Positions 8,632-36,374 of a DNA stretch of 64,000 nucleotides are shown here, one piece after another. The notes under the pieces are model-generated. The model had not been told where the DNA came from. It was given only the letters and a program-made list of their open reading frames with translations, and did not search any database. Origin of the DNA: an uncultured Bacteroidales bacterium (GTDB lineage: Bacteria > Bacteroidota > Bacteroidia > Bacteroidales > CAYRRV01). Within the stretch, counting starts at the first letter, position 1, and the number at the start of each line of letters is the position of its first letter. The stretch covers positions 155 to 64,154 of the forward strand of contig CAYRRV010000010.1 in the NCBI GenBank assembly GCA_964426725.1. The letters are read 5' to 3'. A program made the position numbers and the translations under genes.

Positions 8632-8641
8632 ATTAAACAGA

Positions 8642-8842: not shown

Positions 8843-8853
8843 TTTCTTTAATG

Positions 8854-9105
8854 TTAATTGTTTTCTCTTGATCTGGCTTCATTGACAACCATATCCCTGT
8901 TTTCGTAAACTGTACCGTTCAGGCTTTCAATGGCTTCTTTTGCTTCATTCTCATTTTCCATGATCACGAAACCGAAACCTTTACTTCTGCCACTGTACCT
9001 ATCGGTAATAATTTTTGAAGAATTTACAGACCCGTATTCACCGAATACTTCTTCCAGGTCGTTTTCATTAACCTTGTAATTAAGGTTTCCTACATAAATG
9101 TTCAT
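8854..9105 (-). CDS. RRM-type RNA-binding protein
   Basis: RNP2 'NIYVGNL' and RNP1 'KGFGFVIM'. 83 aa. Sits 11 nt upstream of the csp gene. Confidence 0.85.
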   Translation of the reverse strand: MNIYVGNLNYKVNENDLEEVFGEYGSVNSSKIITDRYSGRSKGFGFVIMENENEAKEAIESLNGTVYENRDMVVNEARSRENN

Positions 9106-9613
9106 TAATAAAATTTTATTGGATTTAAAAAACGAGTCGTGATGGACTAAAACCGGAGGGTGTCAATTCAAAATAACCCAAATTTTCAAATCAGTTAATA
9201 CGCGAAGGTATGTTAATATTTTAAAAGTATCGACATTAATCAGGAATTATTCATAAAAAATAAAGAAAACTGAAATATCCTGGTCTGTTAACCTGCAAAT
9301 AATCTTTTCTTTCGCCTTGCAACTCTGGAGTAAAACTCTTGTCTTTATTGTATTTCGTACCTTTAAAATTGATAAAATCAAAAATGCAATTCAATATATC
9401 ATTATTTTGGCAGATAGCTTTTATGGTCTTTACATTTCAATGTCTCACGATCAGGCATGTTTTTTACTTCATCTTTCGCTGTATTAACTGTGTTTTAAAC
9501 TTTGTGAATAAGCCCGCTATCCTCGTTTTACGTATTTTTTGCTTTAATATGTTAATCACGGTATGGTCTGTTTCAAATTATTTATTATATTTATTCTCTC
9601 AAAACCCTGAGCA

Positions 9614-15094: not shown

Positions 15095-15126
15095 GTCAGG
15101 TAATAAGTTGAAAATTTAATATATGA

Positions 15127-15134
15127 CAAAAATA
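15127..15134 (-). promoter_or_regulatory. -7 box (TATTTTTG on the minus strand) for the TBDR/DUF4249 unit
   Basis: The plus strand reads CAAAAATA, 33 nt upstream of the ATG at 15094. Confidence 0.4.
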
Positions 15135-15485
15135 GAACGCGGATGAACCCGTAAAAATATCGAATCGGTAAATCAGGTATAATATTCGGTAAAGTGAACC
15201 GCGATTGGGAGTTATTTTTCGTTAGTGAGGATAAGGGGTACCGAATAGCTCGACGCTTTAGCCCGGGGGTATAAAGAAATATCCCGAAATTATTATCCCC
15301 CTTCATCCAGGTAATTCCCGGGTTACAGACCATCTCCCGTCCACCAAGTAACGCGAAGGCTCCCGTCTTCCCACTCGGGATGACAATCAATCACCATTTA
15401 TATCAATAATTATCTTTTCATTTTTTTCATTTCAAACCACGAGATTTTCAAAATCCCGGAATAAATAATTATAAAAACAATCAAA

Positions 15486-16400
15486 ATGAAGACACGGTAT
15501 TTGATTTTTTTGATGTGCATGGTAGCCTCTTCATGGTTTACCGCGGGAGCTCAATTTTCCGGCCATGGTATATTGGAGGATTATTTTGAAAAGGTTAGGA
15601 TCGGGGAGGCGTACAAGTTACCCCCGGTAGGTGATATACCGGTCACGCCCCGTACAATAGAAACGATAATCCCTTACCTGTCAGATACCCTGCCCCGGGT
15701 GCAACTGGAGGGCTGCCGGCTGTTGCATTTGGTATTTCGGGGAGCTGTTGACAGCCTCAACCGGCAAAAGGTTTTAACTCTTTTATGCAAGACAGCCGCT
15801 GGTTTGCCTCCTCCAAAGAGCCGGGTATGTTTAGGGTGGCTGACAGGTTACCGGGCGGGTGATTTTACAAACGAGGCCTGCTATTACCTGGTACAGGTAG
15901 CCCGACAAAAAAACAGCGCGTTTAGCATGGCTGTTAAGCTCGCGGCCTTCGCGGGCAGCACCGAAATACGTTACCTGGCACGAGGTTTTCAACGCGATAC
16001 CATGTTAATGCCCCGCGACCGTTTTGCTGCCAGTTTGGCACTGGCGAGAATGGGGGAGAAGAAAGCCATAAAGAGCATTCTTCAGTGGGTGAGAACGTTG
16101 CCGGTAGGAGATGACCTGGTACATGAAATTGTACCCGGCCTTGTTTACACCCGGCAGCCGGAAATATATGATTTCCTGTACGATATTATTCTCGCTGAAG
16201 AAAAAAACTGTTACTCTGTTAACCCGAACAGCACGGGGAAAATACCCTGCGCGTACGAGGTGATACATTTTCTGGCACCCGGTATAGAAAACTTCCCCGT
16301 CACGGGCGATAACCTTTACACCGAAGCTGTCCTTCGTGAAACAAGAGAATGGATCATGGAAAACAAGAGCCGGGCAATAATAAACCGCAGTACATATTGA
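15486..16400 (+). CDS. Secreted hypothetical protein with HEAT/ARM-like repeats (locus gene A)
   Basis: Signal peptide 'MKTRYLIFLMCMVASSWFTAGAQ'. Helical repeat-like segments such as 'LALARMGEKKAIKSILQWV'. Its stop lies 2 nt before the next ATG. Confidence 0.5.
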   Translation: MKTRYLIFLMCMVASSWFTAGAQFSGHGILEDYFEKVRIGEAYKLPPVGDIPVTPRTIETIIPYLSDTLPRVQLEGCRLLHLVFRGAVDSLNRQKVLTLLCKTAAGLPPPKSRVCLGWLTGYRAGDFTNEACYYLVQVARQKNSAFSMAVKLAAFAGSTEIRYLARGFQRDTMLMPRDRFAASLALARMGEKKAIKSILQWVRTLPVGDDLVHEIVPGLVYTRQPEIYDFLYDIILAEEKNCYSVNPNSTGKIPCAYEVIHFLAPGIENFPVTGDNLYTEAVLRETREWIMENKSRAIINRSTY

Positions 16401-16402
16401 AT

Positions 16403-19400
16403 ATGAGAAAAAATTGTTTGCTGATAATATGTATTTTTTTACACCTCGCGGGTTGGACTGGCGTGGTTCCGGTTCAAGTGAACGAACCGGGATCCGGAAA
16501 CGCCGAATTCGCGTATCCCTTGCTTTCGGCTGGTATTTTTCTGCCGCAGAACCACAAGACCATCGACGAGATAGAAACCCTGTCCAACGAGATTCATGCT
16601 TCGGAAAGATATATTGACAGGTTGGATTCAGGAGCGTTTTTTAATCTTCCGATTGGTTTAACGAGTGGTTCAAACGAAGACCCGGCTTACACGATATTAA
16701 TCAGTAGCATGACCCTTACTCCTGGTGGTGCCTATTTTGATGCTTTCATGATGTTTAAAAATCCGGTTGACGGGAAGCCTGTTGCTTTTGAAGCTCTGAA
16801 TGTTCCTTTTTCATTCAGGGGAGGATTACAGGGAATAGTAAGGATGGAACTGGTAAGTGAGGTTGCTATAAAGGCAACCCGGGAAATAGACATAAAGATT
16901 CTGCCCGGTACCTTTGTTGAATTTGGTTGTGGTGGTTTTCAGCAAATGGGTTTATTTGGAAACTTGTTGTTTGAAAACAGTACCTTTATCAAGGTAGACA
17001 GCAAGGGTAATGACCTGAATGAACCCCTGCAGGCTTTTTTTGAAACCACGGCGAAAAGTTTTTCTGATTTAACCTTTTCACTTTCACTGGATCGATTTAG
17101 ACTAAAGTGTTTACCACATCTATATTTTACCTGCAAGGATCTTACGGCTGATTTTAGTGATAATATGAACCCGCCTGCAATAGTGTTTCCCGATAATTAT
17201 GCCATGACAGTGACCGGAGCTGATGAAATGTGGAAGGGAATTTATATCGGTCAGGCCGCGGTTACCCTTGGAGGACCTTTCAGCCAGGAAGATAAAGAGG
17301 AATTAACATTATCTGCATATAGTCTTTTAATTGATGAAAATGGTTTCACAGGCACATTTGGAGTAGAAAATCTCGCTTCAATGGGAGCGCTTAACATGGA
17401 TGGCTGGCCATTTTCAATTAATGATTTTCAAATCGATTTTATTAATAGCCATATTTCATCAGGCATGTTTAGTGGAAAACTAAATGTTCCATTCTTTGGC
17501 GATGAAAATCAACTTAATTACAAGGCCCTGATATCTTCGGGAGGTGAATACTTTTTTACGGTGAAACCTGAAAATAATCTTCAGTTTCCTGCTTTTGGAA
17601 ATTCTTCACTTGAATTGGCCAATACCTCAGTAATTGAAGTAAGTATTATTGATGATAAATTTATCCCTGAAGCAAATCTGAACGGGCGATTGAATCTGAA
17701 TTGTCCGATTTCTGATGGAGATAAAGGACTGAATTTCAAAGGTATGGCATTTCAGGGAATGCGCCTGGCCACGGTAGAACCCTTAATGACAATTGATTAT
17801 TTAGCCTACTCGGGGGATGAAAAAGGAAAATTTTCTGGATTTCCTATCACGATAAAAAGCCTGGAATTGATAAACCGGGAAGATGATTACGTTTTAAATA
17901 TTCATTCCGTAGTTAATTTCTCCAAATCATCAGAAGAAGGATTTGGTGGAGAATCTTTAATTGGAATTGTCTCTCAAAAGGATAATAACAAATTAAAATA
18001 CAAATCCGCTGAAATTGGAATGATAAAAGTCTCCTTCTCTAAGCCCAAAGCTTTCAGTATTGAAGGAGAAATAGCTTTTGCAAAAGGCGATGCAGTTTAC
18101 GGGAATGGTTTCCGGGGTTATTTACACGCCACATTTACTGAAAGATTTGAAGTAGAAGCCTTAGCTGTTTTTGGAAGTATAAATAACTCACGATATTTCT
18201 TCGTAGATGCAGCATTTATGGCAGATCCGGGGATAAAGGCTGGTCCAATAAATTTTAATGGTTTCATGGGTGGTTTGTATAAACACATGTCACAGAAAGT
18301 TGGTAATAATTCCGGTAGTCAGTCTTTTGGAAAATCATTATCAGGTATTACTTATCTTCCTGATCCAAATATAGGAATAGGAATAAAAGCCGGTGTAAAA
18401 TTTGGTCTTATTTCAAAACAATTAATTGACGCGGATGCATGTTTCGAAATTGTTTTTGAAAAGTCTGGTGGATTAAAACAAATCCTCTTCACCGGGAATG
18501 CCAAGTGCATAACTCCGGAGGTTCCATTTAATGCTTCTCAAGCTACTGATAAGTTATTGAAAATGGTTTCAAAGGGTAGAGAAATAAATGTGCCTGCCGG
18601 GCTTGTTACTGCTACCATCGATTTGGAAATGAACTTTGACAAGGAAGATTTCCATGGAGAACTGGTTACTTATATTAATGTTGGTAGTTTTATACGGGGT
18701 GTAAACCCGGGGGGAATGGCGGGAAAAAGTGTAATTCATTTCGATCATGAAAAATGGTATTTGCATATTGGATCACCCCAATATCCATTGGGTATTGAAT
18801 ATGCCGGGATAATGAGAACAGGAACATACTTCATGGCTGGTCACGATTTACCAACAACGTTGCCAACTAACGAGAAACTTTTGTCTCACATGAGTTTCAG
18901 TGAGGATGATTTTTGTAAACAGAGAAATTCAAATATTCTGGAAGGTGGTAAAGGTTTTGCCTTTGGAACCAATTTTGAGTTATCTACCGGCGATCTTACA
19001 TTTCTAATTTTTTACGGAAGTTTCGAAATTGGTGCCGGTTTTGATATGATGTTGCTCGATTATGGCAGTAAGGCTTATTGCGATGGGTTTTCTCCTCCAG
19101 TTGGAATCAATGGATGGTATGCCGATGGACAGGCTTATGCCTACCTGGCGGGAAAAATCGGATTAACAGCAAAATTATTGGGTAAACAAAAAAAGTTCGA
19201 GATATTGAGCATATCATCAGGTGCACTGCTCAATTTACAGGGCCCGAATCCTTTTTACATGCAAGGTTTCGTGTCAGGCAATTATAACATCTTAAACGGG
19301 ATTATCAGCGGAACATGCAGGTTCAAGGTTGAGGCCGGCGAAAAATGCGAAATCATGACCGGGAACGATGATGTGGAGATGGAAATTATCGGGGATATTA

Positions 19401-20866
19401 CACCTTCAGATCAGGCATCAGATGTTGATGTATTCGCGCTACCACAGGTGGTTTTTAATTTGCCGGTAGAAAAAGAAATTAAATTATCTGAAGGAAATCT
19501 TCCTGGTAAGTACTACAAAATAAAACTGGAGGAGTTTAACATCGTTGGAGGACAAAGCTCATTAAGTGGAAATTACAGGTGGAATGAGAGAAAAGATGTT
19601 CTCGTGCTGGAATTAAATTCTATTTTGCACCCTGAAAATGAATACGAGATAAAAGTTAAAGTATCATTCCAGGAAAAGATAAATGGAGAATGGGTTCCAT
19701 TTAAAGAAGATGGTAAGATTCTCTCCGAAACCAGGAAATTGTCATTCAAAACTGGTAAACTGCCTGGCAAAATTCCTGCCGGGGAAGTTTTGCATAGTTA
19801 CCCGGTGAATCGACAAATGAATTTCTACAAGGATGAATACAAGAATGGATATATTATTTTCAGGAGGGATCTTTCACCCTTTTTTGAACAAATACCTGAC
19901 TACAGGAAGGAAGTGTGGTTAAGTACGGGCAATAGCCGGCCACTTGTAACAAAAATGGATTATATCTCTTCGGAAAATCGATTAGATTTCTCACTGCCGG
20001 AAGGTATAATGTTAAATAAAATATACTCGTGCGAACTCATGAATGTACCGACAAGTGCGGCAAAACGTATTGATCGCAATGTTGAAACTAAAATAGAATC
20101 GCGAAAACTAAATGATTCAACATCGATAGATATCAAGGGAAGCGTTGCAAGCGGTGAAGTCAGGTCTTTAGAGGAGAAATCATTCTTTTCAATAAAATTT
20201 CGGACAAGTATGTATTCATCACTAAAATCTAAAATCGGTGTTACTGAAAAAGAAGTAAGATCTCTATATCGGGTCGCGGAAAATGTATATTTCATGGGGA
20301 TTGTCTTTACCGGCGATGAGATGTTTGATAAATATGAAATTTATGGTTCGGAAAACAGCGAGTCATTGATTAAGGGAATTCCATTACCGCTGGAATCTAA
20401 ATTTTATTCTAAAGAAGTTCACCCGCTACTTTATAAAGTTTATCCATGGGGAAACACTAGTCAATGCATGGATTGGAGGGATCCTGATGAACCTGGGATT
20501 CCCCCGCTGGAAAATATCAAGATATGGCAAACCAACTGTAACAGGGTACTTAAAGATTCCGAGATCAAATCCGGAAGCCCGGAACCGGGGGCAACTTTGG
20601 TAAACTTGGTTTATACCTTGCCATATTTCTGGGCATATGATTACTATGATATGAGAGATTATTTACTCAATTATCCACCCAGTTACATGATGAAACCGGC
20701 AACCGTTGATTTTATTAAAGATAATTTCTGGTTGAGACCTGTTAAAGCAGACAAATACCCGGTTAAAATTGAATATCATTTGCCGGGTAGAGATATCGTA
20801 ACCTCTTCCTTCAAACTTACCTTCAATAATAAACTTAAAACAACATATGAAGACTTTAAAGAATAA
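16403..20866 (+). CDS. Giant (1487 aa) secreted or membrane-anchored hypothetical protein (locus gene B)
   Basis: Start chosen at 'MRKNCLLIICIFLHLAGW', a hydrophobic N-terminus 2 nt after the gene A stop. The track ORF begins at 16349 inside gene A. The frame is uninterrupted over 4.4 kb. I recognise no domain. Confidence 0.7.
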   Translation: MRKNCLLIICIFLHLAGWTGVVPVQVNEPGSGNAEFAYPLLSAGIFLPQNHKTIDEIETLSNEIHASERYIDRLDSGAFFNLPIGLTSGSNEDPAYTILISSMTLTPGGAYFDAFMMFKNPVDGKPVAFEALNVPFSFRGGLQGIVRMELVSEVAIKATREIDIKILPGTFVEFGCGGFQQMGLFGNLLFENSTFIKVDSKGNDLNEPLQAFFETTAKSFSDLTFSLSLDRFRLKCLPHLYFTCKDLTADFSDNMNPPAIVFPDNYAMTVTGADEMWKGIYIGQAAVTLGGPFSQEDKEELTLSAYSLLIDENGFTGTFGVENLASMGALNMDGWPFSINDFQIDFINSHISSGMFSGKLNVPFFGDENQLNYKALISSGGEYFFTVKPENNLQFPAFGNSSLELANTSVIEVSIIDDKFIPEANLNGRLNLNCPISDGDKGLNFKGMAFQGMRLATVEPLMTIDYLAYSGDEKGKFSGFPITIKSLELINREDDYVLNIHSVVNFSKSSEEGFGGESLIGIVSQKDNNKLKYKSAEIGMIKVSFSKPKAFSIEGEIAFAKGDAVYGNGFRGYLHATFTERFEVEALAVFGSINNSRYFFVDAAFMADPGIKAGPINFNGFMGGLYKHMSQKVGNNSGSQSFGKSLSGITYLPDPNIGIGIKAGVKFGLISKQLIDADACFEIVFEKSGGLKQILFTGNAKCITPEVPFNASQATDKLLKMVSKGREINVPAGLVTATIDLEMNFDKEDFHGELVTYINVGSFIRGVNPGGMAGKSVIHFDHEKWYLHIGSPQYPLGIEYAGIMRTGTYFMAGHDLPTTLPTNEKLLSHMSFSEDDFCKQRNSNILEGGKGFAFGTNFELSTGDLTFLIFYGSFEIGAGFDMMLLDYGSKAYCDGFSPPVGINGWYADGQAYAYLAGKIGLTAKLLGKQKKFEILSISSGALLNLQGPNPFYMQGFVSGNYNILNGIISGTCRFKVEAGEKCEIMTGNDDVEMEIIGDITPSDQASDVDVFALPQVVFNLPVEKEIKLSEGNLPGKYYKIKLEEFNIVGGQSSLSGNYRWNERKDVLVLELNSILHPENEYEIKVKVSFQEKINGEWVPFKEDGKILSETRKLSFKTGKLPGKIPAGEVLHSYPVNRQMNFYKDEYKNGYIIFRRDLSPFFEQIPDYRKEVWLSTGNSRPLVTKMDYISSENRLDFSLPEGIMLNKIYSCELMNVPTSAAKRIDRNVETKIESRKLNDSTSIDIKGSVASGEVRSLEEKSFFSIKFRTSMYSSLKSKIGVTEKEVRSLYRVAENVYFMGIVFTGDEMFDKYEIYGSENSESLIKGIPLPLESKFYSKEVHPLLYKVYPWGNTSQCMDWRDPDEPGIPPLENIKIWQTNCNRVLKDSEIKSGSPEPGATLVNLVYTLPYFWAYDYYDMRDYLLNYPPSYMMKPATVDFIKDNFWLRPVKADKYPVKIEYHLPGRDIVTSSFKLTFNNKLKTTYEDFKE

Positions 20867-22895
20867 ATATAGATATTTCATTCTCGCTGTATTCATAGTA
20901 AATTCATTATTTGGGTATCATGCTTATGCTCAACCCGGACGTGAAATAGTAGCTCTTGCTAATCATTTTGGTGACTCTGTTATGATACGGATAGCTCCTG
21001 CCACCATGGAAAGTTGGCAGGAATCAATAAGGAATGGTTTTATAATTGAAAAGTATTCTATTGATAATCATTACCATGAAAAGTTATTTAACCGTATAGA
21101 AATTCAACCATACCCGGTTGAATATTTTATGAATTATACCGGAACTGATTTATATATATCTATGATTGGCGAATTAATATATAATGAAAAACCTGAAGTA
21201 AACTATGATTTAAGTAGTAATCTTGCCAGTATTTTCGATGTTGCACAGAACAAAGAAAACCGTTTCAGCTATAGCCTGCTCTGTGCGGATATTTCATTCA
21301 ACGCGGCCAGGGCTGCCGGATTGGGTTACGTTGATAAAAATGTTGTAAAAGGTCAGAATTACCGGTACAAGATTATCTCAAGAAGCCAAAAATCAAATGC
21401 CGATACATTTCAAGTATACCCGGGAGCAGGTTCAATGCCACTACCAAAACCTGTTCAGCTTAATGCAAATACAGAGAGAAACCTGGTGATACTGAAATGG
21501 TCAAAAAGTTTTATCGAGAACAGGTACGTTTATTATGAAATAGAAAGAAAAGACGGACCTCTTGAACCGTTTCAGAAAATAAACAATCTCCCTTATGTTC
21601 CAATAGAAAATGCAGATATGGATCGAATGCCCTTTTATACTTACGTGGATACATTTAACCGGAATGATGAAGTGGCTTACAGGATAAAAGGAGTTACCTG
21701 CTTTGGAGAACAGGGTCCCTATTCCGATACGGTTCATACAGGGTACGTTTCGAAATTATACGATCTGCCTGTAATTCTAAAAAAAGCTATTGGAATAGAT
21801 ACCTTTTATATTGAATGGCAGTATCCCGAATACCCATCGGGTGATTCCCCGGAAGGATTTATAATTATGCAGTCTGATGTTTATGATGCTGGTTACAATA
21901 TTATTTCTGACAGCTTGAATCCTGAATCAAGAAACTTCCGCGGGAAACTTGGTAACAATTCTTTTTATATCAAGGTGTCGGCTTTCAGGAATGATGCCCG
22001 GGTGTCTTCACAACCGGTTCTGATTCAACCATTTGATACCATTCCGCCGGCAGCTCCCAAAATAGCTTTTGCTGAAATAGATACCAATGGGAATGTAAAT
22101 ATTTCCTGGAATTCTAACCCGGAACCTGATATATATGGATACAGGTTGTACCGGGCCAACGATACCAACGAGGAGTTTTCTCTTTTAACTGCATCACCAG
22201 TAAAAGACACTTTCTACCTGGATATTGTCAATTTAAATACCTTGTCTGAAAATGTCTGTTATAAACTAATGGCTCTTGACAAGAGACAAAATTATTCCAA
22301 ATTTTCGGAGTCTTTCGTGATAAAACGCCCGGACATTATTCCGCCGGCTTCTCCGGTTTTAACAAAAATTCAATCTGATTCATGCTGTAACAGGATTCTC
22401 TGGATAAATAGTTCGAGTAAAGATGTGAAGAAATACATTCTTTATAAATTTGCTGTCACTGACATGGATACTGTCGAAATTGACTTTCATGATACACTGA
22501 CTTGTTACATGGATTGTGAGCTCATGGTTGATGTGCCCACGAAATACGAGTTAGTGGCTGTTGATAAATCCGGTAATCATTCAAATAAATCAAACCCGCT
22601 TACTTTTGTAAATGCAAGTTGTAAACCAGGATTAGAAGTTGATTATCGAGTGTCAAGAAATAAAAGCGAGATAAATCTAACCTGGAAACTCAGGAAAGTG
22701 AGTTATAATAAATTTTTATTGTACAGGAAAAAGGGCGATGGTTCATTTATCTTTCATGCATCTTTAAATGGTGATGCTGAATACTATACAGATAGTAAAG
22801 TTACGCCTAAAACAGATTATCAATATTTGCTAAAGGGGATAGATAAATCTGGTTATTCGCGGATTCTAAATAAATCAGGGAGTATTAATTTCTAA
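20847..22895 (+). CDS. Secreted FN3-like multidomain protein (locus gene C)
   Basis: Signal peptide 'FILAVFIVNSLFGYHAYAQ'. Repeated FN3-like modules: 'IPPAAPKIAFAEIDTNGNVNISWNSNPEPDIYGYRLYRA', 'IPPASPVLTKIQ...ILWINSSSKDVKKYILYKF' and 'INLTWKL...FLLYRKK'. Overlaps the end of gene B by 20 nt. Confidence 0.65.
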   Translation: MKTLKNKYRYFILAVFIVNSLFGYHAYAQPGREIVALANHFGDSVMIRIAPATMESWQESIRNGFIIEKYSIDNHYHEKLFNRIEIQPYPVEYFMNYTGTDLYISMIGELIYNEKPEVNYDLSSNLASIFDVAQNKENRFSYSLLCADISFNAARAAGLGYVDKNVVKGQNYRYKIISRSQKSNADTFQVYPGAGSMPLPKPVQLNANTERNLVILKWSKSFIENRYVYYEIERKDGPLEPFQKINNLPYVPIENADMDRMPFYTYVDTFNRNDEVAYRIKGVTCFGEQGPYSDTVHTGYVSKLYDLPVILKKAIGIDTFYIEWQYPEYPSGDSPEGFIIMQSDVYDAGYNIISDSLNPESRNFRGKLGNNSFYIKVSAFRNDARVSSQPVLIQPFDTIPPAAPKIAFAEIDTNGNVNISWNSNPEPDIYGYRLYRANDTNEEFSLLTASPVKDTFYLDIVNLNTLSENVCYKLMALDKRQNYSKFSESFVIKRPDIIPPASPVLTKIQSDSCCNRILWINSSSKDVKKYILYKFAVTDMDTVEIDFHDTLTCYMDCELMVDVPTKYELVAVDKSGNHSNKSNPLTFVNASCKPGLEVDYRVSRNKSEINLTWKLRKVSYNKFLLYRKKGDGSFIFHASLNGDAEYYTDSKVTPKTDYQYLLKGIDKSGYSRILNKSGSINF

Positions 22896-22907
22896 AATTG
22901 ACAAATC

Positions 22908-25900
22908 ATGCGACGTTTGTTAATCATGCTGTGTTTTACTTTCATTTTTCAAAGTGTTTTTTTGCAGACGATAAGGAAAATAGCTGAATCTAATTATTAT
23001 GTAATTCATGATCATAGATATATTGAGAATCAAACAAGAGGTACTAAAACATTGAATCATTCAGAATATTTGTATTCAAATAAGGTAATAAATGCGGATT
23101 ATGAGGACTGTAAGATACTTAAGGAGAATGAGGACATATATCAGTACTATTGCATGTCAGTACATCCCCTTCTGAAAATAACAAATATTCAGAATCCTAT
23201 TTTAGAGGATGGAGGAATATTAAAAATTGAATTGCATGATGTGGATGAAAATTCTATATTTGATAGTCCTAGTGGAGCAAATGCAAAATATTATAATGCA
23301 CATTTGCAAGTAAATCTTGCCACCAACACCGGTTGGGAGGATCGGGAAAATATTATTTTGTGGCCCGGGATAAGGTCGATTAGGTATTCATCGCTTATAG
23401 GTTCTCACCCGGACTGGTTAGGAAAAGAGTTGAAAATACGGGTAGTGCAGCATCTGGGAGATATCTTATTTGTTGGAGAAGAAAGGCGAATCATGCTCAT
23501 GGAAAAGCTGGACGCGGAAATAACAAACATTGTTCAACCTTGCAATGAAATCCCACCCGGTTTTGATATTGATCTAACAAAAATTCCCGAGAGTGATAGT
23601 CTCGGGGAGAAATACTTTTTAATATCTATAGACAAGTTTACCAAAAGTTATACTGGTTATGATGATACAGTTCATTATAATAATGAAGTTTATTATAATT
23701 ATACCAATTCAACTTGCAATAAAAAATTGCCCATAGGACAAAATACGTTGTCTGTTACAAATAACTTTTGTGATATAGATAATTTTATATCAACAGGAGT
23801 TTACCGTGTAAATGTTAAGTTATTTGCGCTTAATAGAGACTACTTTACCTTAACAAAAAAGTTGTATTTCGAGAGAAAAGATTTTGAAGTAGAGGCATCA
23901 CCAACATACGATAGTGATTATACTTTAATAACAGGCGAAACCCATGGAAAAATTACCATTAAGTTTGTAAATTATGATCCTCCGTTCAAATACTGGACAA
24001 ATCACACGACACTATCAGGAGAGCCTTCTGTAAATGTACCTGATACTTTTCAATCCAACCATAAAAAAATTTTTGCGGATAACATGTTGGAGGGAAAACA
24101 CGTGATTTATGGTCAAACATCAAATGGTTGCGTGGCTAAATCAGAACAGGTTATACTTCAGGGACCGCCTTTGCCAGAAATTATTGTTGATTCAGTGAAG
24201 AATGTTTCTTGCAACATAAAAGACAAAGGAGAACATGATGATGGGATAATAATGTTTCACGAGATTGGTGGTATTCCCCCGTTTTTTTATACATTATACA
24301 GGGAAGGTGTTTCCCTTGATCATATAAATAATGCATCAGGTGCTGTTAAACAATTTGATGTCGAATTGACAAGTGGTAAATATGTTATATCAGGTAGCGA
24401 TTGCACGGGTTATCAATTTATTTCGAATACAATAGTTATTAAAGAACCATTATCCCTATCTCTTGATAATATCGAAAAAAACATGCCCAGTTGTTATGAA
24501 TTTCACGATGGTATGATAAAAGGAGTGATTAGTGGAGGGAACCCAAACTATAATTATTCTCACGATTCAATTAATTGGTCGGGGTCTCCTGCAATATCTA
24601 ACTTGTCTTCAGGAAATTATACATATCATGTTAAAGATAATCAGGGTTGTTATAATTCTTTCCCTGTTTCCTTATCTCAGCCTTCTGAATTGAATTTTCT
24701 TGCCGGACATAACGTTAAAACAACTTGTGAAACAGCTTCAAATGGGGAATATGGATTTAAAATTACTGGTGGAGCGCCTTACCGGGAAGGATATGATATT
24801 TTTTTAAACGGGAAACCCATCAATCAAAGAGTCCGGGATACAATCCTTACAGGATTATCAAGCGGGTATCATACAATCAAAGCTACTGACACCAATAATT
24901 GTCAGGTGCAAAAAGAAATATTTATCGATGTAAGTGAAAACCAAATGGAAATTTTGGAAGATTCGGTATGGGTCAAAAATGTTTCTTGTGCTGAAGTAAA
25001 TAATGGTAAGATACGGGTTAAAATAAAAGAATGTGAAATCCCAAATCCACCCTATACATTCTCGATTGGAATTCAAGGTATGGAAAGGACTGTAAATAAT
25101 GTTTCCGAAACTTTTCATGATTTAGGCGATGACAATTACGAGATATCTGTAACAGATAAGGATGGTTGCAATTCATCCCTGCCCGTGAAAGTAGACGTAA
25201 TCCCGAATCCCGTTCAGGCTCAGGTAGACAAGGTGCTTCCCGCCCGTTGTACTGGTTCTTTAACAGGAGTTGTTAGTGTTACCGGTTCAGATGGCATACC
25301 TTATTCTGATGGATACCAGATTGCCTTGACAGGTAGTGGAGTTGATACAACGCTGGCAAATTATGGTTATTCCTTCAATTACCATATGCTGGGTTCAGGT
25401 CATTACTCGGTGACCTTTGAAGATGCTGATGGTTGCCAGGCAACTGACTCATTTGAGATCAATGAAAATAGTTCCCCAGTATCCATACAACAATTTGGTC
25501 CTGTAGAACATCAGGCCTGTGATGAAATTCAAAATGGCCGTATTTCAGTAAATGCCGCTGTATTGAATAATGATAGTGAATTATCTATCCTGAATCTAAA
25601 TAGCAACATTGTAATCAATAATGATACCGCCAGTTTTGAATATTTAAAAGCGGGAGAGTACACGATAGTTGCCATGGACACCTTTAATTGTCGGGATACA
25701 TTTGTTATAACTGTTGATAATTTGCACATTAAGCCTCAAACTAGTTTGATTGATATGTTCCCGCAGCCCTGCCCCGGGATTAATAAGGGACATTTTCAGG
25801 TTAAAACCAATCATGTCGATTTCTACAAAGGTTTGACTTATACATTAATCCATGGAACCGATTCTGTGGTATATTCAAGTAATGATAGCCTGTATACCTT

Positions 25901-28733
25901 TAGAGATTTAAATTCTGGTTATTACAGGATAATAGTTGAAGAGTACCATGGCTGTAAGGGCCACATTGATATAAATTTATCCATGAATGAAAATCAGGTC
26001 AAGCTTTCAACTCCTGAAATTAAACCTTCTACTTGCATGACTTCGGAAAACGGTGAGGTTTCGATAATTGGTTCCGGCGGGTATCCATTCAAAGAAGGTT
26101 ACCTGTACATACTTTCTGATTATGATAGCCTGACCAGCAATTCTGGCAACTTTAAAGGATTAAATTGCGAGGATATTTATCAAATTAAAATTATCGATTC
26201 CATGGGTTGCCATGAGTCATCCCAGGCTTTTAAAATTCCGGTCGACAGAAATTTTTTACGAATCAAGTCTTTAAATACTATACCAACGAAATGCCCGGGA
26301 GACTCAACCGGTATACTGCAGGTAAAAACCCTGAATGGATTACCTTCAACGAGAGGCTTTAATCTTAGAATTTTCAACCATAAAAAAAGAGAAATTTTAA
26401 GCAGGTTTGTACCTGATAGTTTTAAACTTGATAATCTGAAAGGCGGGAATTATTACCTGTTAATTGAAGACTCGGTACAATGCGGTGTATCAGATCATTT
26501 TTCCATTAGTGAACCCTCACCGGTTGGCATTGATGTTACACACGGCTTTATTCCTGAAAAGGGCGGTAATGATGGCAGCGTTACCGTGAATATAAAAAAT
26601 GGAAACCCTAATTACATCCTGGAGTTTCTGAAAGCAAATGCACCTGAAGATACCCTTTACAGTGGCTATTCAGACTCACTTTTCTTTATGGACCAACTTA
26701 CTGCCGGAATTTATTTAGTAAAGGTGAAAGATGAAAATGGCTGCATCTATAATGGAAAGGAATGGACGACCGAGCTTGTTTCTATTCATGAACCGGAAGA
26801 AGCGTTAAAAGTTCGGGCAGAAAGAATTTTTCAACCAACCTGTAAAGGATACGATGATGGAATGATCCAGCTAAAAGGCAGTGGAGGCTGGGGAGATTCC
26901 TATTTATTTAGCATAGATTCGACCATTTATTCAGCTAATTCTGACTTTAAAAACTTAAAAGCAGGTAAGTATACATTCCATGTGCTGGATACTTCCGGTG
27001 TGCATGGAAGTCAATTAATCGAACTTCCTGAGCCTGACTCATTGACTGTTATCATAGATGAACTTTCTGAACCTAATTGTCATGGATATTCCGATGGTTT
27101 TGCCAAACTTATTATTTCAGGGGGTACCCCGGATTATTATATTTCACATGATTCAATAAACTGGATTCAGGGAGATTCTATTAATGATATCAGGGCTGGT
27201 AATAATAAATTACATGTTAAGGACATGCACGAGTGTTTTACAAGCACGGATTCATTTTATATTACCCAGCCACCCCCGTTATTGATAACAGATAGTGTCA
27301 TTATTAAATCTGCTTGCGGCAAAGCCAATGGAGCCATTGCCATAGAGGTAAGCGGGGGAACTCCCGGTTACATGTATAACTGGTATGGAAAAAATATCAA
27401 TATAAGCCGGGAAGCACGGGTTGATAATATCTCGGCAGGACGTTATAAAGCAGTGGTAAGGGATGGAAAGGGTTGTTATTTATCCCGTGATTTTAATGTT
27501 TCAGATATTTCTGATATTACTTTGGAGGTAGAATGGCTTGATAATGTAACATGTCATGGTAAAAGGGATGGCGCGGCAGAGATAAAATTGTCAGGTGGAT
27601 ACCCTCCTTACAAGTTTTATTTTGATGATAAACAAAGCACAACTTCATTAAGTGGAATACCCGAGGGAGATTACACTTGCATGGTTGTTGATTCGGCTGG
27701 TTGTCAACTATTTGAGAATATCAATATTGGCGGTCCGGCCAAATTGCAAATAACTCCGGAAATAGTTGAACCGTATTGTTTGGGTATTGAGAATGGAAAA
27801 ATTAAGCTGGATGTGACAGGGGGTACCCCACCTTACAATTATTACTGGAATACAGGAATACGGGGCAGGGAAATAAGTTCCCTTCCAAAAGGAAAATACC
27901 TGATTAAAGTAATTGATAATCATGATTGTGAATCTACCCGGGAGATTTTTTTAGATTACCAGCATTCATTACCTGTTTCGTTAAAAGATACTTTTAAGTT
28001 ATGCGAGGGACATGATTTGCTAGTGGAAGCTGGTGACTATTCAACTTATACCTGGTATGATGAAGATTTCAGGAAATTGGGAGAGGAAGACATTCTCCCG
28101 GTAAGTAACCAGGGTAAATACTACCTGGAAGTTACAGATGAAATGAATTGTGAGGCTCTTGATTCCTTCGAAATAAAGATTGTAGATATTGATATTTCAC
28201 CAGAATTTTTAGCCGCGAGTGTTATCAACCTGGGTGATACTTTACTGTTAATTGAAACATCTATTCCGTTTCCCGATTCTGTTTCTTGGAATTTTCGGGC
28301 AGAAACTTACCAGACCGATTTCAACGCTTATTCAAAAATGGTAATTCCTCGTGATACAGGCGAATTATTTGTTGGACTCACGGCCTGGTTGGATGGATGT
28401 GGAGCCAGCACGGCAAAAAAGATCCTTGTAAAAGAAATACTGGATGAAAATAAAAAGAAGTCAACCATAATGAACCTGGTGAAAAAGATAAACCTCTATC
28501 CAAATCCTGTTTCAGATTATATTAATGTTGATGTTCTGCTTTCGGAAACGAGAAGTTTGCATTTACGGTTAGTACACATGCAAACAGGTAGAGAAGTTCG
28601 AAGAATAGAATTTAAAGGAAGTAACCATTATAGTTTTGATATGAACCTGCAAGACATGATGAAAGGATACTACCTTTTTTATTTCGAAATTGGAGATGAA
28701 CGATTCTTCGAGAAAATATTAAAGCATCCATGA
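22908..28733 (+). CDS. SprB-repeat cell-surface protein with T9SS type A C-terminal sorting domain (locus gene D)
   Basis: About 15 repeats of the 'C..(x)..G.I.V...GG.PPY.Y' type, for example 'CHGKRDGAAEIKLSGGYPPYKFYF' and 'CLGIENGKIKLDVTGGTPPYNYYW'. The C-terminus 'LYPNPVSDYINVDV...GYYLFYFEIGDERFFEKILK' resembles a Por_Secre_tail. Confidence 0.8.
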   Translation: MRRLLIMLCFTFIFQSVFLQTIRKIAESNYYVIHDHRYIENQTRGTKTLNHSEYLYSNKVINADYEDCKILKENEDIYQYYCMSVHPLLKITNIQNPILEDGGILKIELHDVDENSIFDSPSGANAKYYNAHLQVNLATNTGWEDRENIILWPGIRSIRYSSLIGSHPDWLGKELKIRVVQHLGDILFVGEERRIMLMEKLDAEITNIVQPCNEIPPGFDIDLTKIPESDSLGEKYFLISIDKFTKSYTGYDDTVHYNNEVYYNYTNSTCNKKLPIGQNTLSVTNNFCDIDNFISTGVYRVNVKLFALNRDYFTLTKKLYFERKDFEVEASPTYDSDYTLITGETHGKITIKFVNYDPPFKYWTNHTTLSGEPSVNVPDTFQSNHKKIFADNMLEGKHVIYGQTSNGCVAKSEQVILQGPPLPEIIVDSVKNVSCNIKDKGEHDDGIIMFHEIGGIPPFFYTLYREGVSLDHINNASGAVKQFDVELTSGKYVISGSDCTGYQFISNTIVIKEPLSLSLDNIEKNMPSCYEFHDGMIKGVISGGNPNYNYSHDSINWSGSPAISNLSSGNYTYHVKDNQGCYNSFPVSLSQPSELNFLAGHNVKTTCETASNGEYGFKITGGAPYREGYDIFLNGKPINQRVRDTILTGLSSGYHTIKATDTNNCQVQKEIFIDVSENQMEILEDSVWVKNVSCAEVNNGKIRVKIKECEIPNPPYTFSIGIQGMERTVNNVSETFHDLGDDNYEISVTDKDGCNSSLPVKVDVIPNPVQAQVDKVLPARCTGSLTGVVSVTGSDGIPYSDGYQIALTGSGVDTTLANYGYSFNYHMLGSGHYSVTFEDADGCQATDSFEINENSSPVSIQQFGPVEHQACDEIQNGRISVNAAVLNNDSELSILNLNSNIVINNDTASFEYLKAGEYTIVAMDTFNCRDTFVITVDNLHIKPQTSLIDMFPQPCPGINKGHFQVKTNHVDFYKGLTYTLIHGTDSVVYSSNDSLYTFRDLNSGYYRIIVEEYHGCKGHIDINLSMNENQVKLSTPEIKPSTCMTSENGEVSIIGSGGYPFKEGYLYILSDYDSLTSNSGNFKGLNCEDIYQIKIIDSMGCHESSQAFKIPVDRNFLRIKSLNTIPTKCPGDSTGILQVKTLNGLPSTRGFNLRIFNHKKREILSRFVPDSFKLDNLKGGNYYLLIEDSVQCGVSDHFSISEPSPVGIDVTHGFIPEKGGNDGSVTVNIKNGNPNYILEFLKANAPEDTLYSGYSDSLFFMDQLTAGIYLVKVKDENGCIYNGKEWTTELVSIHEPEEALKVRAERIFQPTCKGYDDGMIQLKGSGGWGDSYLFSIDSTIYSANSDFKNLKAGKYTFHVLDTSGVHGSQLIELPEPDSLTVIIDELSEPNCHGYSDGFAKLIISGGTPDYYISHDSINWIQGDSINDIRAGNNKLHVKDMHECFTSTDSFYITQPPPLLITDSVIIKSACGKANGAIAIEVSGGTPGYMYNWYGKNINISREARVDNISAGRYKAVVRDGKGCYLSRDFNVSDISDITLEVEWLDNVTCHGKRDGAAEIKLSGGYPPYKFYFDDKQSTTSLSGIPEGDYTCMVVDSAGCQLFENINIGGPAKLQITPEIVEPYCLGIENGKIKLDVTGGTPPYNYYWNTGIRGREISSLPKGKYLIKVIDNHDCESTREIFLDYQHSLPVSLKDTFKLCEGHDLLVEAGDYSTYTWYDEDFRKLGEEDILPVSNQGKYYLEVTDEMNCEALDSFEIKIVDIDISPEFLAASVINLGDTLLLIETSIPFPDSVSWNFRAETYQTDFNAYSKMVIPRDTGELFVGLTAWLDGCGASTAKKILVKEILDENKKKSTIMNLVKKINLYPNPVSDYINVDVLLSETRSLHLRLVHMQTGREVRRIEFKGSNHYSFDMNLQDMMKGYYLFYFEIGDERFFEKILKHP

Positions 28734-28750
28734 TGAAATTTTTAAGTTAG

Positions 28751-30487
28751 ATGATTGTTAAATTTTATTTTATACCCAGGGGCTTATTTTTCCTTTTGTT
28801 TGTATTACAGTTTATTGTGAATTCCATGGCACAAGACTTATCAGACATTAACACTGCAAACCCATTTGTAATTGCCGGTAATGTAAATATGACACAAACG
28901 CTTCGTTATGGAAACGACTATAGCATTGAAAATCCTTATACCAGTATTTATTCAGTTAACCTGAACTGCAAGGTGCTGGGGTGGAGTATTCCTGTTTCAG
29001 GAATATATTCAAATCGGGAATTTAATTATTCACATCCTTTTAACCGATTGTCTTTGAGTCCTTCCTTCAAGTGGATAAAAACCCGGGTCGGGCATACCAG
29101 TATGACTTTTTCTCCCTATACCCTGAGTGGACATTCTTTCACGGGGGGTGGTATAGAATTATCACCACCTGGGAAATTTACAATGAGTGCCATGGCCGGA
29201 CGATTAAAAAAAGCCATGGAAGCAGATACGGTGCATCAAACGGAAAACGCGTTTGCCCGTTGGGGTTACGGGATTAGCGGTGATTTTAATTATAAAAGTG
29301 TAAACCTCGGGGCATCATTTTTTTACGCGAAGGATAATGGTGGATCTGAAATTAATGTTGTAGATAGTTCGCTTGTTAATCCAATGGAAAACCTGGCATC
29401 AAGTTTCCGGTTACAAACCACATTATTCAAAAACCTGACTTTAAAGGGTGAATATGGTATTTCGCTGCTTACGAGTAATATTTACCAGGAAAAATCAGGT
29501 AACCGGTTTCGATTCATGCAAAGAAATCAAAGTTCTGCTGCTCATCATGCATACAAAATTAATTTCACCTACCAGTCGTTGTTGGGAGCTTTTTCTGCAT
29601 CCATGGAACATGTAGACCCCGGTTATAAAACGCTTGGGGCTTACTATTTCGTGAATGATTTCGTGAATTACACCTTGGGGTATGCCGCGGCATTCTTGCA
29701 AAACAAGATCAATCTGTCTTTTACAGGTGGTTTGCAGGAAGATAATCTTTCCAACACACTTTCAACAGGTAACCGGCGAAAGGTAGGCGCTATTTCACTT
29801 GCAATTGTTCCTGTAAAACCTCTAAATCTCCAATTCAACTATTCTGCTTTCAATGATTACACCCATATTGCTGATCCGTTGGAGGAGGTGGGGCGGGTAG
29901 TGCCCTGGATAGAGGAAGATACATTGACTTTTACTCAAGTATCCGAGTCCGCCTCGGCTGGTCTTTCATGGAATATCGAGCAAAAAGAAAATGCCACACA
30001 GTTCCTCTCCCTTAATACCACACTGCAAAAAACCGCTACCGGGCAGCAGGGTAATACCAAAAGCGAGGGGACTGAAATCTTTAACCTTATGGGGGCCTAC
30101 AACCTCTCGTTTACAAAGCAAAAACTATCTCTCTCCGCTACCTTTTCTTTGTCTTGTAACGAATCAGCCGTCCTGAACACTACCTTGTATGGCCCGGGCC
30201 TTTCCCTGCGGCAGCAACTGTTCAGCGGGCTGCTCTCGGTTAATCTTTCCGGTAGTCATCACCAATCACTTCAGCAAAATATTCCCGCCCGCCCGGGTGA
30301 ACCCATTCGCCAAATCAGCTCCATTACCGTACTGCGTGGCGCCGCTTCCCTCAACTTTAAAAAAACTCACCAGCTAACCATTACCCCGGCACTGGCATTT
30401 CGAAAAAAATCAAAAAATACGCGGAATAATGATGGCTCGGTGGTGGTAAGGTACGGTTGTAGGTTCGGGAAAAAAAATGATTATTGA
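28751..30487 (+). CDS. Putative outer-membrane beta-barrel protein (locus gene E)
   Basis: Signal peptide 'FFLLFVLQFIVNSMAQ'. Alternating-hydrophobicity strands throughout ('YGISGDFNYKSVNLGASFFYAKD', 'HAYKINFTYQSLLGAFSASMEH'). I recognise no family. Confidence 0.5.
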   Translation: MIVKFYFIPRGLFFLLFVLQFIVNSMAQDLSDINTANPFVIAGNVNMTQTLRYGNDYSIENPYTSIYSVNLNCKVLGWSIPVSGIYSNREFNYSHPFNRLSLSPSFKWIKTRVGHTSMTFSPYTLSGHSFTGGGIELSPPGKFTMSAMAGRLKKAMEADTVHQTENAFARWGYGISGDFNYKSVNLGASFFYAKDNGGSEINVVDSSLVNPMENLASSFRLQTTLFKNLTLKGEYGISLLTSNIYQEKSGNRFRFMQRNQSSAAHHAYKINFTYQSLLGAFSASMEHVDPGYKTLGAYYFVNDFVNYTLGYAAAFLQNKINLSFTGGLQEDNLSNTLSTGNRRKVGAISLAIVPVKPLNLQFNYSAFNDYTHIADPLEEVGRVVPWIEEDTLTFTQVSESASAGLSWNIEQKENATQFLSLNTTLQKTATGQQGNTKSEGTEIFNLMGAYNLSFTKQKLSLSATFSLSCNESAVLNTTLYGPGLSLRQQLFSGLLSVNLSGSHHQSLQQNIPARPGEPIRQISSITVLRGAASLNFKKTHQLTITPALAFRKKSKNTRNNDGSVVVRYGCRFGKKNDY

Positions 30488-36296: not shown

Positions 36297-36374
36297 TCAA
36301 ATATTCATCTATTCACAACTTATTCACAACTTAAATACTACCTAATAACCACCCAATCATTACCTGTTTCCAAA

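Follow-up and report, generated by a model that had tools for sequence, protein, structure and literature searches.

Genes A to E, which lie at 15486-30487 of the 64-kb stretch of DNA analysed here (the window), form, as judged by orthology, a toxin-less A-B-C-D-E version of a gene module that accompanies TANFOR polymorphic toxins in other Bacteroidota. Gene order kept over large distances supports the view that A to E are a conserved, co-inherited surface or envelope system. The reading that we favor, with a confidence slightly better than even, is that a T9SS-exported fibre (D) would stand on a dedicated envelope platform of B, C and E and serve cell contact, and that this platform would deliver toxins in other genomes. 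Membership of the conserved module is the strongest evidence for such a platform.

A compact unit of five genes for secreted proteins

ORF calls on the window placed five ORFs tightly together on the forward strand (Table 1), with a 2-nt gap between A and B, a 20-nt overlap of B and C, a 12-nt gap between C and D and a 17-nt gap between D and E. An earlier note made from the sequence had given the same positions, strand and spacings. The longest ORF that contains B begins at 16349. A scan for terminator-like sites gave 15, with 14.1 expected from shuffled sequence, so that none inside the unit rises above chance; this agrees with the note's remark that no internal terminators are visible. The N-termini of all five proteins, read from the sequence, begin with a basic residue that leads into a hydrophobic stretch and are signal-peptide-like, as had been claimed.

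A TonB-dependent receptor gene adjoins the locus and is divergent from A. Other T9SS parts and cargo in the window are a PorP/SprF gene and two further sorting-domain proteins; a canonical pair of type B sorting domain and PorP/SprF lies at 35292-42143. The T9SS core genes are absent from the window, and the presence of a T9SS in the host genome is suggested by the PorP/SprF gene together with the two other sorting-domain proteins. A phage or defence-system origin of A to E was rejected, since a PHROGs search returned weak Ig/FN3-type matches only and a PADLOC search returned no matches.

Table 1. Coordinates of the A-E locus and of the parts of D (window numbering)
Feature	Coordinates	Strand	Length	Description
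Upstream intergenic region	15095..15485	+	390-nt gap	Presumed promoter of the A-E unit, from layout
A	15486..16400	+	304 aa	Signal-peptide-bearing HEAT-repeat protein; accessory component
B	16403..20866	+	1487 aa	Predicted secreted all-beta protein
C	20847..22895	+	682 aa	Secreted; conserved N-terminal domain of ~200 aa, then ~5 FN3 domains
D	22908..28733	+	1941 aa	~16 SprB repeats and type A T9SS sorting domain
D, N-terminal head	22908..24167	+	~420 aa	Variable, not conserved between loci
D, repeat body	24105..28007	+		~16 SprB-type repeats of ~87 aa, each with a Cys pair
D, C-terminal sorting domain	28494..28718	+		Type A T9SS sorting domain, residues 1863-1937
E	28751..30487	+	578 aa	Predicted outer-membrane beta-barrel, ~24-26 strands, plugless, without POTRA

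Conservation of the module across Bacteroidota

Synteny was counted in 80 fetched loci carrying relatives of B. The sole recurrent neighbour families of B were C (69 loci), D (64), E (36), a sixth family that we call G (35) and A (19). Adjacent pairs were B-C in 68 loci, C-D in 58, E-G in 22 (E directly upstream of G), A-B in 13, E-B in 8 and D-E in 6; C was nearly always directly 3' of B, and A was usually directly upstream of it. This gene order is conserved across Bacteroidota classes at ~25-45% protein identity. A chance juxtaposition, which the earlier note would have read from an absence of conserved synteny, is contradicted by the recurrence of the same order across the phylum. In very distant loci the B-C-E trio is kept and D gives way to an NHL propeller or to a fibre-type protein with Peptidase_S74. 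One protein (P0134) joins SprB repeats to the N-terminal side of the B core. B stands without its partners in at least one long contig (L001).

The B family itself is large. A full HMMER scan gave 3361 cluster representatives (clusters at 50% identity), and a degenerate-pattern genome scan found relatives in at least 589 GTDB species genomes. Tractable carriers of the module include Ohtaekwangia koreensis DSM 25262, Chitinophaga, Tenacibaculum and Flavobacterium bizetiae. The apparent rarity of B in a word-indexed search, which returned 13-17 relatives, was therefore dismissed as a sensitivity artefact.

Link to TANFOR polymorphic toxins

TANFOR is a published class of Bacteroidetes polymorphic toxins (Jana, Salomon & Bosis 2020, PMC7073777). 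Around TANFOR genes that study found an enrichment of SprB, Por_Secre_tail and Fn3 domains, and it proposed that the toxins are exported by the T9SS itself. The sixth family, G, was recognized as TANFOR toxin by TIGR02542 (E 2.5e-11); its C-termini are an Endonuclea_NS_2 nuclease or TNT, and a conserved 230-237-aa gene lies downstream. In the locus from Ohtaekwangia koreensis (L025) the G protein is the published TANFOR toxin WP_079685666.1, and the gene order is E-G(WP_079685666.1)-230aa-A-B-C-D. This toxin is flanked by full-length orthologues of window A, B, C, D and E, at 27-33% identity.

The N-terminal module of TANFOR toxins (TANFOR-N) was also found fused to the B core (P0149, P0158, P0254, P0280, P0140 and P0245; E 1e-39 to 1e-129), and the B proteins at two loci, L004 and L006, carry the same fusion. 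The middle of G had no homology to the B core. Both TANFOR toxins and B carry Sec signals and have no sorting domain.

The published neighbourhood of TANFOR genes has its counterparts in the window, with D as the SprB and Por_Secre_tail substrate, C as the Fn3 protein and A to E as orthologues of toxin-flanking genes. Unlike TANFOR loci, the window has neither a TANFOR toxin nor its immunity gene: no TANFOR gene was detected in the 64 kb by tblastn with 7 G proteins or by an HMM of 31 G N-termini, and the TANFOR-N HMM had no match at E <= 10 in the six-frame translation. The window locus would thus be tied to toxins by orthology only. The earlier note had proposed an undescribed apparatus, and this held in part. 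The TANFOR neighbourhood with its SprB, Por_Secre_tail and Fn3 enrichment was published in 2020, but that account (PMC7073777) makes no mention of the HEAT protein, the B family or the E barrel, nor of the fixed order and the fusions. The later literature searched likewise describes neither of the families B and E, nor the A-B-C-D-E/E-G-B-C-D module, nor any of the domain fusions.

Properties of the five proteins

The Pfam HEAT_2 match of A is faint. A profile of 21 A orthologues matched HEAT proteins (alphaRep at 1e-13, PP2A-A at 4e-8), and the two Cys residues C242 and C255 are invariant. The C profile matched FN3 arrays over positions ~215-690, among them titin (6e-22) and PTPRD. The descriptions of A as HEAT-like and of C as FN3-like, made from the sequence alone, were both sound.

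B consists of an N-module (residues ~80-450), a conserved core that extends to residue ~1000 and a C-terminal region of ~490 aa. It had no match in Pfam, NCBIfam or PDB sequences, and PDB sequence searches with B, with the B core profile and with the B C-terminus found nothing. The B-family profile aligned residues 271-812 to a DUF6603-containing protein with an hhalign probability of 99.4%, yet a Pfam search of B gave no direct match to DUF6603 (PF20248) and reached no Pfam threshold. By these profile comparisons the B core is a remote relative of DUF6603 and not a scored member. A literature search on DUF6603 returned no paper that mentions it. The earlier note's statement that B matches nothing nameable therefore stands for the Pfam, NCBIfam and PDB searches, but not for the core with its remote relationship. 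An AF2 model of residues 30-1200 has ~60 beta-strands (pLDDT 76) and a low global confidence (pTM 0.45). Foldseek searches with it (PDB, BFVD) were uninformative, with TM <= 0.14 and generic beta-meander matches to LptD, SlpA, ApoB, ushers and phage tail fibres. Neither a lipobox nor a T9SS sorting domain was found in B, and lipoprotein anchoring was rejected for the family, in which a lipobox-like string occurs in 7/74 N-termini at inconsistent positions.

D matched Pfam SprB (PF13573) at 1.3e-34, and its Cys pairs recur every ~87 aa, about 16 times. The sorting domain passed both curated cut-offs, with 31.4 bits for PF18962 (Por_Secre_tail; cut-off 27) and 25.7 bits for TIGR04183 (cut-off 23). 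The SprB-type repeats (~15 in the earlier note) and the type A sorting domain were both recovered. The repeat body is conserved in 67 locus proteins and the type A sorting domain is kept at the C-termini of D orthologues. The head had a relative in only 1/80 loci (phmmer) and no match among PDB sequences. An N-terminal signal-peptide-like stretch and a C-terminal Por_Secre_tail above cut-off mark D as T9SS type A cargo. In other species proteins with type A sorting domains are often simply shed or become bound to LPS and have no anchor of their own, which speaks against the platform reading given below.

The AF2 model of E (pLDDT 83, pTM 0.71) is a plugless beta-barrel with ~25 long strands, in agreement with the outer-membrane barrel suspected from strand periodicity. 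E had no match in Pfam or NCBIfam, and neither E nor its profile matched PDB sequences. Foldseek searches with the model returned generic large barrels only. The best structural matches were MtrB (TMq 0.50), the FimD usher (0.44-0.46) and LptD, a fold-level likeness at 7-11% identity to barrels whose width would let a folded polypeptide sit inside or pass through. In contrast to usher and MtrB systems, E has no usher plug or usher N- or C-terminal domains and is accompanied by no chaperone gene and no cytochromes; Pfam searches for a chaperone-usher pathway at the A-E locus found no usher or PapD-like chaperone. More than 667 homologues of E were found, none annotated beyond 'porin family'. 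The E family is wider than the module and also occurs 3' of other T9SS adhesin genes (L008, L009).

Comparison with known systems

Like the window locus, the sprCDBF genes of Flavobacterium johnsoniae belong to a T9SS-bearing bacterium and bring together a SprB-repeat protein, an outer-membrane barrel and large accessory proteins as a co-transcribed set. True F. johnsoniae-type sprC and sprD were located in metagenome contigs with the help of a primer sequence from PMC9870892; this sequence had no matches in 91 loci. SprC recovered in L094 has 489 aa with Ig_7 and CHU_C (a type B sorting domain), and SprD (L094:4595-9208) has 1537 aa with an N-terminal PorP_SprF domain (PF11751, 5e-43) and a long tail. 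The identification of B as SprD was rejected (BLASTP E 0.63, hhalign probability 0.1%), as was that of C as SprC (BLASTP E 2.8). The SprC/SprD orthology that the earlier note had named as a possible refutation was thus not found. CHU_C was not detected in A, B or C, nor PF11751 in B, C or E. SprB has ~6500 aa and a type B sorting domain, and SprB-type adhesins use the type B sorting domain with a cognate PorP/SprF. D, in contrast, has ~1900 aa and carries type A (TIGR04183) rather than type B (CHU_C/TIGR04131), and E has no PorP/SprF signature. The accessory genes and the sorting-signal type do differ from sprCDBF, as had been pointed out.

A second likeness is to CDI and two-partner secretion (cdiB-cdiA-cdiI). 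Loci related to the window share the order of barrel gene, giant toxin with variable C-terminus and small gene, and their toxin has a conserved N-terminal module. However, E has no POTRA/Omp85 signature and ~24-26 strands rather than 16, and none of FhaC, BamA and CdiB was among its best 50 Foldseek matches. The passengers of the related loci carry TANFOR/FN3 modules and not a TPS domain with a beta-helix, and the extra B-C-D genes have no counterpart in CDI. The window itself is toxin-less: no TPS domain, beta-helix passenger or variable C-terminal toxin was found in A to E, the toxin/small-gene pairs being confined to related loci.

Alternative readings

A gliding-motility adhesin paralogous to the SprB system, with D driven along the cell surface and with B, C and E in place of SprC, SprD and SprF, would suit the SprB repeats of D, the layout of giant accessory protein, adhesin and barrel, and the T9SS-bearing source genome. 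We consider it quite improbable. B and C are not homologous to SprD and SprC, and E lacks the PorP/SprF domain, through which SprF-type barrels are connected with the GldK/GldJ track (PMC12635249). The sorting domain of D is of type A, the type B and PorP/SprF pair of the window sits elsewhere, and an association with polymorphic toxins would be unexpected for a motility adhesin. The earlier note had left the choice between an adhesin, a motility-track and a contact-dependent system. Because the module is linked to polymorphic toxins, the contact-dependent option is now favored and the motility adhesin is disfavored. To our knowledge, the T9SS is the only export route so far proposed for TANFOR toxins. 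It is conceivable, if rather unlikely, that E is the translocon of a separate outer-membrane route for the sorting-domain-less TANFOR toxins and for B and C, with the TANFOR N-module as targeting signal, analogous to the TPS domain, and with D merely a co-regulated T9SS adhesin and not a structural partner. Such a route would be in keeping with the E-G-small gene order of 22 loci, which mirrors cdiB-cdiA-cdiI, with the Sec signals of toxins and B and their lack of a sorting domain, with the width, plugless form and usher-, MtrB- and LptD-like size of E, and with the presence of the TANFOR-N module on two unrelated passengers, the toxins and the B core. However, window B has no TANFOR-N module and yet E is kept, and E bears no signature of POTRA, Omp85 or an usher. 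Moreover B-C has no neighbour more constant than D (58/80 loci) and SprB repeats are joined to the B core in P0134, which argues for D as part of the assembly.

The FN3, Ig-like and SprB-repeat content, common in glycan- and surface-binding proteins, the variable head of D and the adjoining TonB-dependent receptor would also fit a surface complex that binds or harvests polymers or particles, unrelated to antagonism, for example an adhesin for nutrient acquisition or for a biofilm matrix, together with a pore for uptake or export across the outer membrane. This is highly improbable: Pfam and NCBIfam searches found no catalytic or carbohydrate-binding domain in A to E, the receptor gene is divergent and is no conserved neighbour of B elsewhere, and the sole recurrent extra neighbour is a toxin family. 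That A to E are functionally unrelated and merely side by side is scarcely credible, given that gene order is kept across Bacteroidota classes at such low identity and that gene fusions exist.

A model for the proposed platform

In the platform reading, all five proteins would cross the inner membrane by Sec, as their signal-peptide-like N-termini suggest. The T9SS would then export D by means of its type A sorting domain, and the ~16 SprB repeats would form a stalk with the variable N-terminal head as the distal binding tip; this export and orientation of D follow established knowledge of the T9SS. E, from its modelled fold, may be the anchor or conduit for partners that have no sorting domain. 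B may hold the stalk as its base close to the cell, with the FN3 rod C as connector or spacer, roles suggested by the invariant B-C-D order and by the natural fusions of SprB repeats to the B core. A could be a periplasmic HEAT scaffold or chaperone.

In many other genomes the gene directly after E encodes a TANFOR toxin, and a small gene, putatively for immunity, comes next. Because E directly precedes the toxin and TANFOR-N also occurs joined to the B core, these toxins are probably displayed or delivered on contact by the same platform, and the module is a candidate apparatus for the display or delivery of TANFOR toxins. With no toxin within 64 kb, the apparatus of the window would be limited to contact or adhesion, or would work with toxins whose genes lie in other parts of the genome. 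A more far-reaching version, possible but tentative, is that B, C and E (with A) are an unrecognised Bacteroidota envelope machine that bears a T9SS-delivered SprB-repeat fibre and serves contact-dependent toxin delivery. Here the E barrel would export or anchor sorting-domain-less passengers by recognition of the TANFOR N-module or the B core, the machine would be non-homologous to T5b/CDI, T6SS and T9SS, and the window would hold a toxin-less 'chassis' variant.

Synteny and fusions are indirect evidence for a putative physical complex of B, C, D and E. Against the platform, the same B-C-D-E synteny would arise from shared regulation of surface proteins that act independently, B stands alone in L001, the E family extends beyond the module, and the B model is of low global confidence and had no informative structural neighbour. 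No recognisable signal for crossing the outer membrane was found in B and C, so both could be purely periplasmic.

Significance

The analysis assigns a genomic context to two large unannotated families, B (3361 clusters) and E (more than 667 matches). TANFOR toxins share a fixed set of partners, namely an upstream plugless barrel, the giant B protein, the FN3 rod and the T9SS fibre, and with this set the question of TANFOR export becomes addressable in culture, for instance in Ohtaekwangia koreensis DSM 25262. Should the platform reading be wrong, the module would still be among the more widespread uncharacterised surface operons of Bacteroidota. If it is true, T9SS-bearing bacteria would have in this module a novel means of making contact weapons or adhesins.

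A five-gene unit that recurs across Bacteroidota

The A-E gene set is real and conserved. All five ORFs lie on one strand at exactly the coordinates called in the earlier note (see table), with spacings of 2 nt (A/B), −20 nt (B/C), 12 nt (C/D) and 17 nt (D/E), and the signal-peptide-like N-termini claimed there were read from the sequence in five of five. Terminator-like sites were not in excess across the region (15, compared with 14.1 in shuffled sequence), consistent with the proposed lack of internal terminators. Upstream of A lies a divergent TonB-dependent receptor gene with a DUF4249 partner, and 300 nt beyond E comes a Fic-HTH gene with a TAnnTTTG-type, −7-like motif (tatatttg) in front of it. 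The position of this motif just before the Fic start makes that gene look like a separate transcription unit, and the receptor and Fic genes together delimit the A-E unit as described. The same Fic gene was also found 3' of E on an independent contig (L095).

Coordinates of the A-E genes and of other features discussed in the text
Feature	Position	Strand	Remark
A	15486-16400	+	ORF call
B	16403-20866	+	ORF call
C	20847-22895	+	ORF call
D	22908-28733	+	ORF call
E	28751-30487	+	ORF call
Fic/DOC protein, C-terminal winged-helix (MarR-like) domain	30788-31828	+	directly 3' of E
GSDH (glucose/sorbosone dehydrogenase) protein	33053-34429	+	
PorP/SprF barrel gene	35292-36296	-	second of type B pair
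PKD/Ig_7 protein, 1921 aa, CHU_C sorting domain	36375-42143	-	first of type B pair

The apparent rarity of B (13-17 matches in a word-indexed protein search) reflected the sensitivity limit of that search. When one genome per GTDB species was scanned with a degenerate pattern, at least 589 genomes proved to carry a B relative, with carriers in Flavobacterium, Tenacibaculum, Aquimarina, Chitinophaga, Ohtaekwangia, Fulvivirga, Labilibaculum, Prevotellaceae and one Chlorobiota MAG. In a full HMMER scan, 3361 of 1.84 billion cluster representatives matched the family at E ≤ 1e-3.

ORFs were then called in 80 fetched loci with 10-kb flanks and clustered all against all. C was found near B in 69 loci, a D-type SprB-repeat protein in 64, E in at least 36, a family of TANFOR-type toxins (G) in at least 35 and A in 19; the E and G counts are lower bounds because the flanks were limited to 10 kb. 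No further family recurred near B in more than 6 of the 80 loci. Same-strand adjacencies were most frequent for BC (68) and CD (58), followed by EG (22), AB (13), EB (8) and DE (6). The window order A-B-C-D-E was also seen in L016, L030 and L036, and B-C-D-E in L015; the gene order, whose conservation the earlier note had left to be checked, recurs across the phylum. Very distant loci retain the B-C-E trio with the fourth gene swapped, for an NHL propeller in L004 (10308-13613) and for a Peptidase_S74 fibre-type gene (tail-fibre chaperone type) in L006 (6297-10004). Both of these loci are Saprospiraceae-type, and a Y_Y_Y histidine kinase and a LuxR-type response regulator adjoin. In five Flavobacterium loci (L077, L078, L081, L084 and L085) B-C is followed not by one giant gene but by three to five tandem D-family genes, mostly of ~390-570 aa. 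A full-length B homologue with 30% identity (L001:10001-14386, on a 903-kb contig) stands alone, its 10-kb surroundings free of C, D and E, and thus B is not always part of a cluster.

Domain content of the five proteins

Profile, Pfam and model searches upheld the anatomy first proposed for A, C, D and E. By itself A gave only a faint HEAT_2 match in Pfam, whereas a profile of 21 orthologues, among which two Cys are invariant, matched the HEAT proteins alphaRep (1e-13) and PP2A-A (4e-8) in the PDB. Profile searches resolved C into a conserved N-terminal domain of ~200 aa and about five FN3 domains. The ~420-aa head of D shows no conservation between loci; it is followed by ~16 SprB-type repeats, recognisable by Cys pairs at regular spacing, then by an Ig_7-like domain and finally by a T9SS sorting domain of type A that scores above both curated cut-offs. 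D residues 651-711 (24858-25040) also gave a weak, sub-threshold match to NF041249 (Francisella-type T6SS TssI/VgrG; 21.5 bits, cut-off 100; E 1.9e-4), probably an artefact of the repeats.

E has more than 667 homologues and no match among Pfam or PDB sequences. Its AlphaFold model, of good confidence (pLDDT 83, pTM 0.71), is a barrel of ~25 long strands with no plug, and its best structural neighbours by Foldseek were MtrB (TMq 0.50), the FimD usher, SlpA, TonB-dependent transporters and SprA. Homologues also occur 3' of other T9SS adhesin genes (L008, L009). The family falls into two size classes, ~575 aa and ~790-820 aa. The 822-aa homologue of L076 matches window E only over residues 19-543, so the extra residues there are C-terminal. 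In Aquimarina algicola (L010:1-9831), Toxin-deaminase, Imm3 and SUKH cassettes (orphan toxin/immunity genes) lie directly 5' of a 791-aa E homologue.

B matched nothing in Pfam, NCBIfam or PDB sequences, carries no T9SS sorting domain and is not a lipoprotein. Its AlphaFold model (residues 30-1200; pLDDT 76, pTM 0.45) is built almost entirely of long beta-hairpins, with ~60 strands in an uncertain global arrangement, and retrieved only generic beta-meander proteins (TM 0.14 or below) by Foldseek from the PDB and a viral library. The family profile aligned over B residues 271-812 with a DUF6603-bearing protein (hhalign probability 99.4%); no mention of DUF6603 was found in the literature searched. 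In the giant proteins P0140 (5511 aa), P0245 (3698 aa) and P0256 (4237 aa), B's first module (about residues 80-450) occurs five to seven times with a period of ~670 aa, a pattern that favours a modular soluble or surface architecture over a single membrane barrel. A remote, DUF6603-bearing relative (P0138, 2084 aa) belongs to another same-strand cluster (L011:1-15127). Proteins of 1259 and 815 aa are encoded upstream of it, and a 374-aa protein, an RCC1-repeat protein and a PQQ_2-propeller protein downstream; the larger of the two upstream proteins matches the C (FN3) profile (3e-17).

Comparison with the spr gliding operon

A true sprD was located by scanning metagenome contigs for a primer within the first 57 bp of F. 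johnsoniae sprD, as printed in PMC9870892. In the resulting locus (L094), a 489-aa SprC (Ig_7 plus CHU_C type B sorting domain) precedes a 1537-aa SprD (4595-9208), and sprB follows. This SprD has an N-terminal PorP_SprF domain (residues 37-299, 5e-43) and a long low-complexity/coiled tail, and ends ...GKMAIVKVEN; the second primer matches with one mismatch. B showed no homology to SprD (BLASTP E 0.63, hhalign probability 0.1%), nor C to SprC (BLASTP E 2.8). Unlike the sprC-sprD-sprB-sprF products, window E lacks a PorP/SprF signature and the sorting domain of D is type A, not type B. The likeness is confined to layout, in agreement with the earlier judgement that this is not an spr operon.

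The window also holds an internal contrast to the D/E pair, a canonical T9SS type B pair at 35292-42143 on the minus strand. The GSDH protein, whose Por_Secre_tail match (26.0 bits) falls slightly short of the gathering score of 27 bits, is likely a second T9SS type A cargo.

Association with TANFOR toxins

G proteins are 1700-2220 aa long. Their N-terminal 460-900 aa, with one FN3 domain, are conserved, and their C-termini diverge, with Endonuclea_NS_2 in L062, L025 and L052 and a TNT-like domain in L063. Nuclease-bearing G genes are followed by a conserved 230-237-aa gene. The N-terminus gives a match (E 2.5e-11) to the TANFOR domain TIGR02542 that stays under the trusted cut-off. TANFOR proteins were defined as a Bacteroidetes polymorphic toxin class by Jana, Salomon and Bosis (2020; PMC7073777), who found SprB, Fn3, PKD and Por_Secre_tail domains enriched near their genes and speculated that the T9SS exports them; no later paper that advances the mechanism was found in the literature searched. 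Their Supplemental Data list WP_079685666.1 of Ohtaekwangia koreensis DSM 25262 (NZ_FUZU01000001.1:1267080-1273301), which is the G gene of L025. The order there is E, G, 230-aa gene, A, B, C, D, and all five window proteins align full-length with their L025 counterparts (27-33% identity). Because of these alignments and the listed toxin, the window cluster is orthologous to the published TANFOR neighbourhood. The window itself carries a toxin-less form, since tblastn with seven G proteins and a search with an HMM built from 31 G N-termini both found no match in the 64 kb, even at E ≤ 10.

Fusions also join these families. A TANFOR-type N-module precedes the B core in P0149, P0158, P0254, P0280, P0140 and P0245 (phmmer E 1e-39 to 1e-129) and likewise in the B proteins of L004 and L006, and SprB repeats form the N-terminal third of P0134 (Haliscomenobacter, 3111 aa), with the B core after them. 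The middle of G has no homology to B. The earlier proposal of an undescribed apparatus stands in part: the module itself, families B and E, the position of E next to TANFOR genes and the fusions were not found described in the literature searched, but since A-E forms the neighbourhood of genes for an already published toxin class, it is not entirely new.

A model for A-E

We lean towards A-E being a fibre and envelope platform, for contact or adhesion here and for TANFOR display or delivery in toxin-bearing genomes. The main rival casts E as a translocon dedicated to TANFOR-type passengers, with D only co-regulated. It draws on the E-G-small gene order, which recalls cdiB-cdiA-cdiI; E, however, lacks any Omp85/POTRA features, and we consider this rival improbable. 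That A-E constitutes a distinct delivery or secretion apparatus is possible but doubtful. A motility system, to which the spr-like layout might point, is a still weaker candidate, a polymer-binding system is weaker again, and chance juxtaposition of genes whose order recurs across the phylum is very improbable.

In the fibre-platform model, D would be exported by the T9SS to form a stalk with a variable distal head and B would be its cell-proximal base, consistent with the N-terminal repeats of the SprB::B fusion and the C-terminal sorting domain of D. C may act as a connector and A as a periplasmic scaffold, and E would sit in the outer membrane as anchor or conduit for those partners that carry a Sec signal and lack a sorting domain. 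Toxin-bearing genomes would use the platform for contact-dependent display or delivery of TANFOR toxins; the form in the window may act in contact or adhesion alone, or may serve toxins encoded elsewhere.
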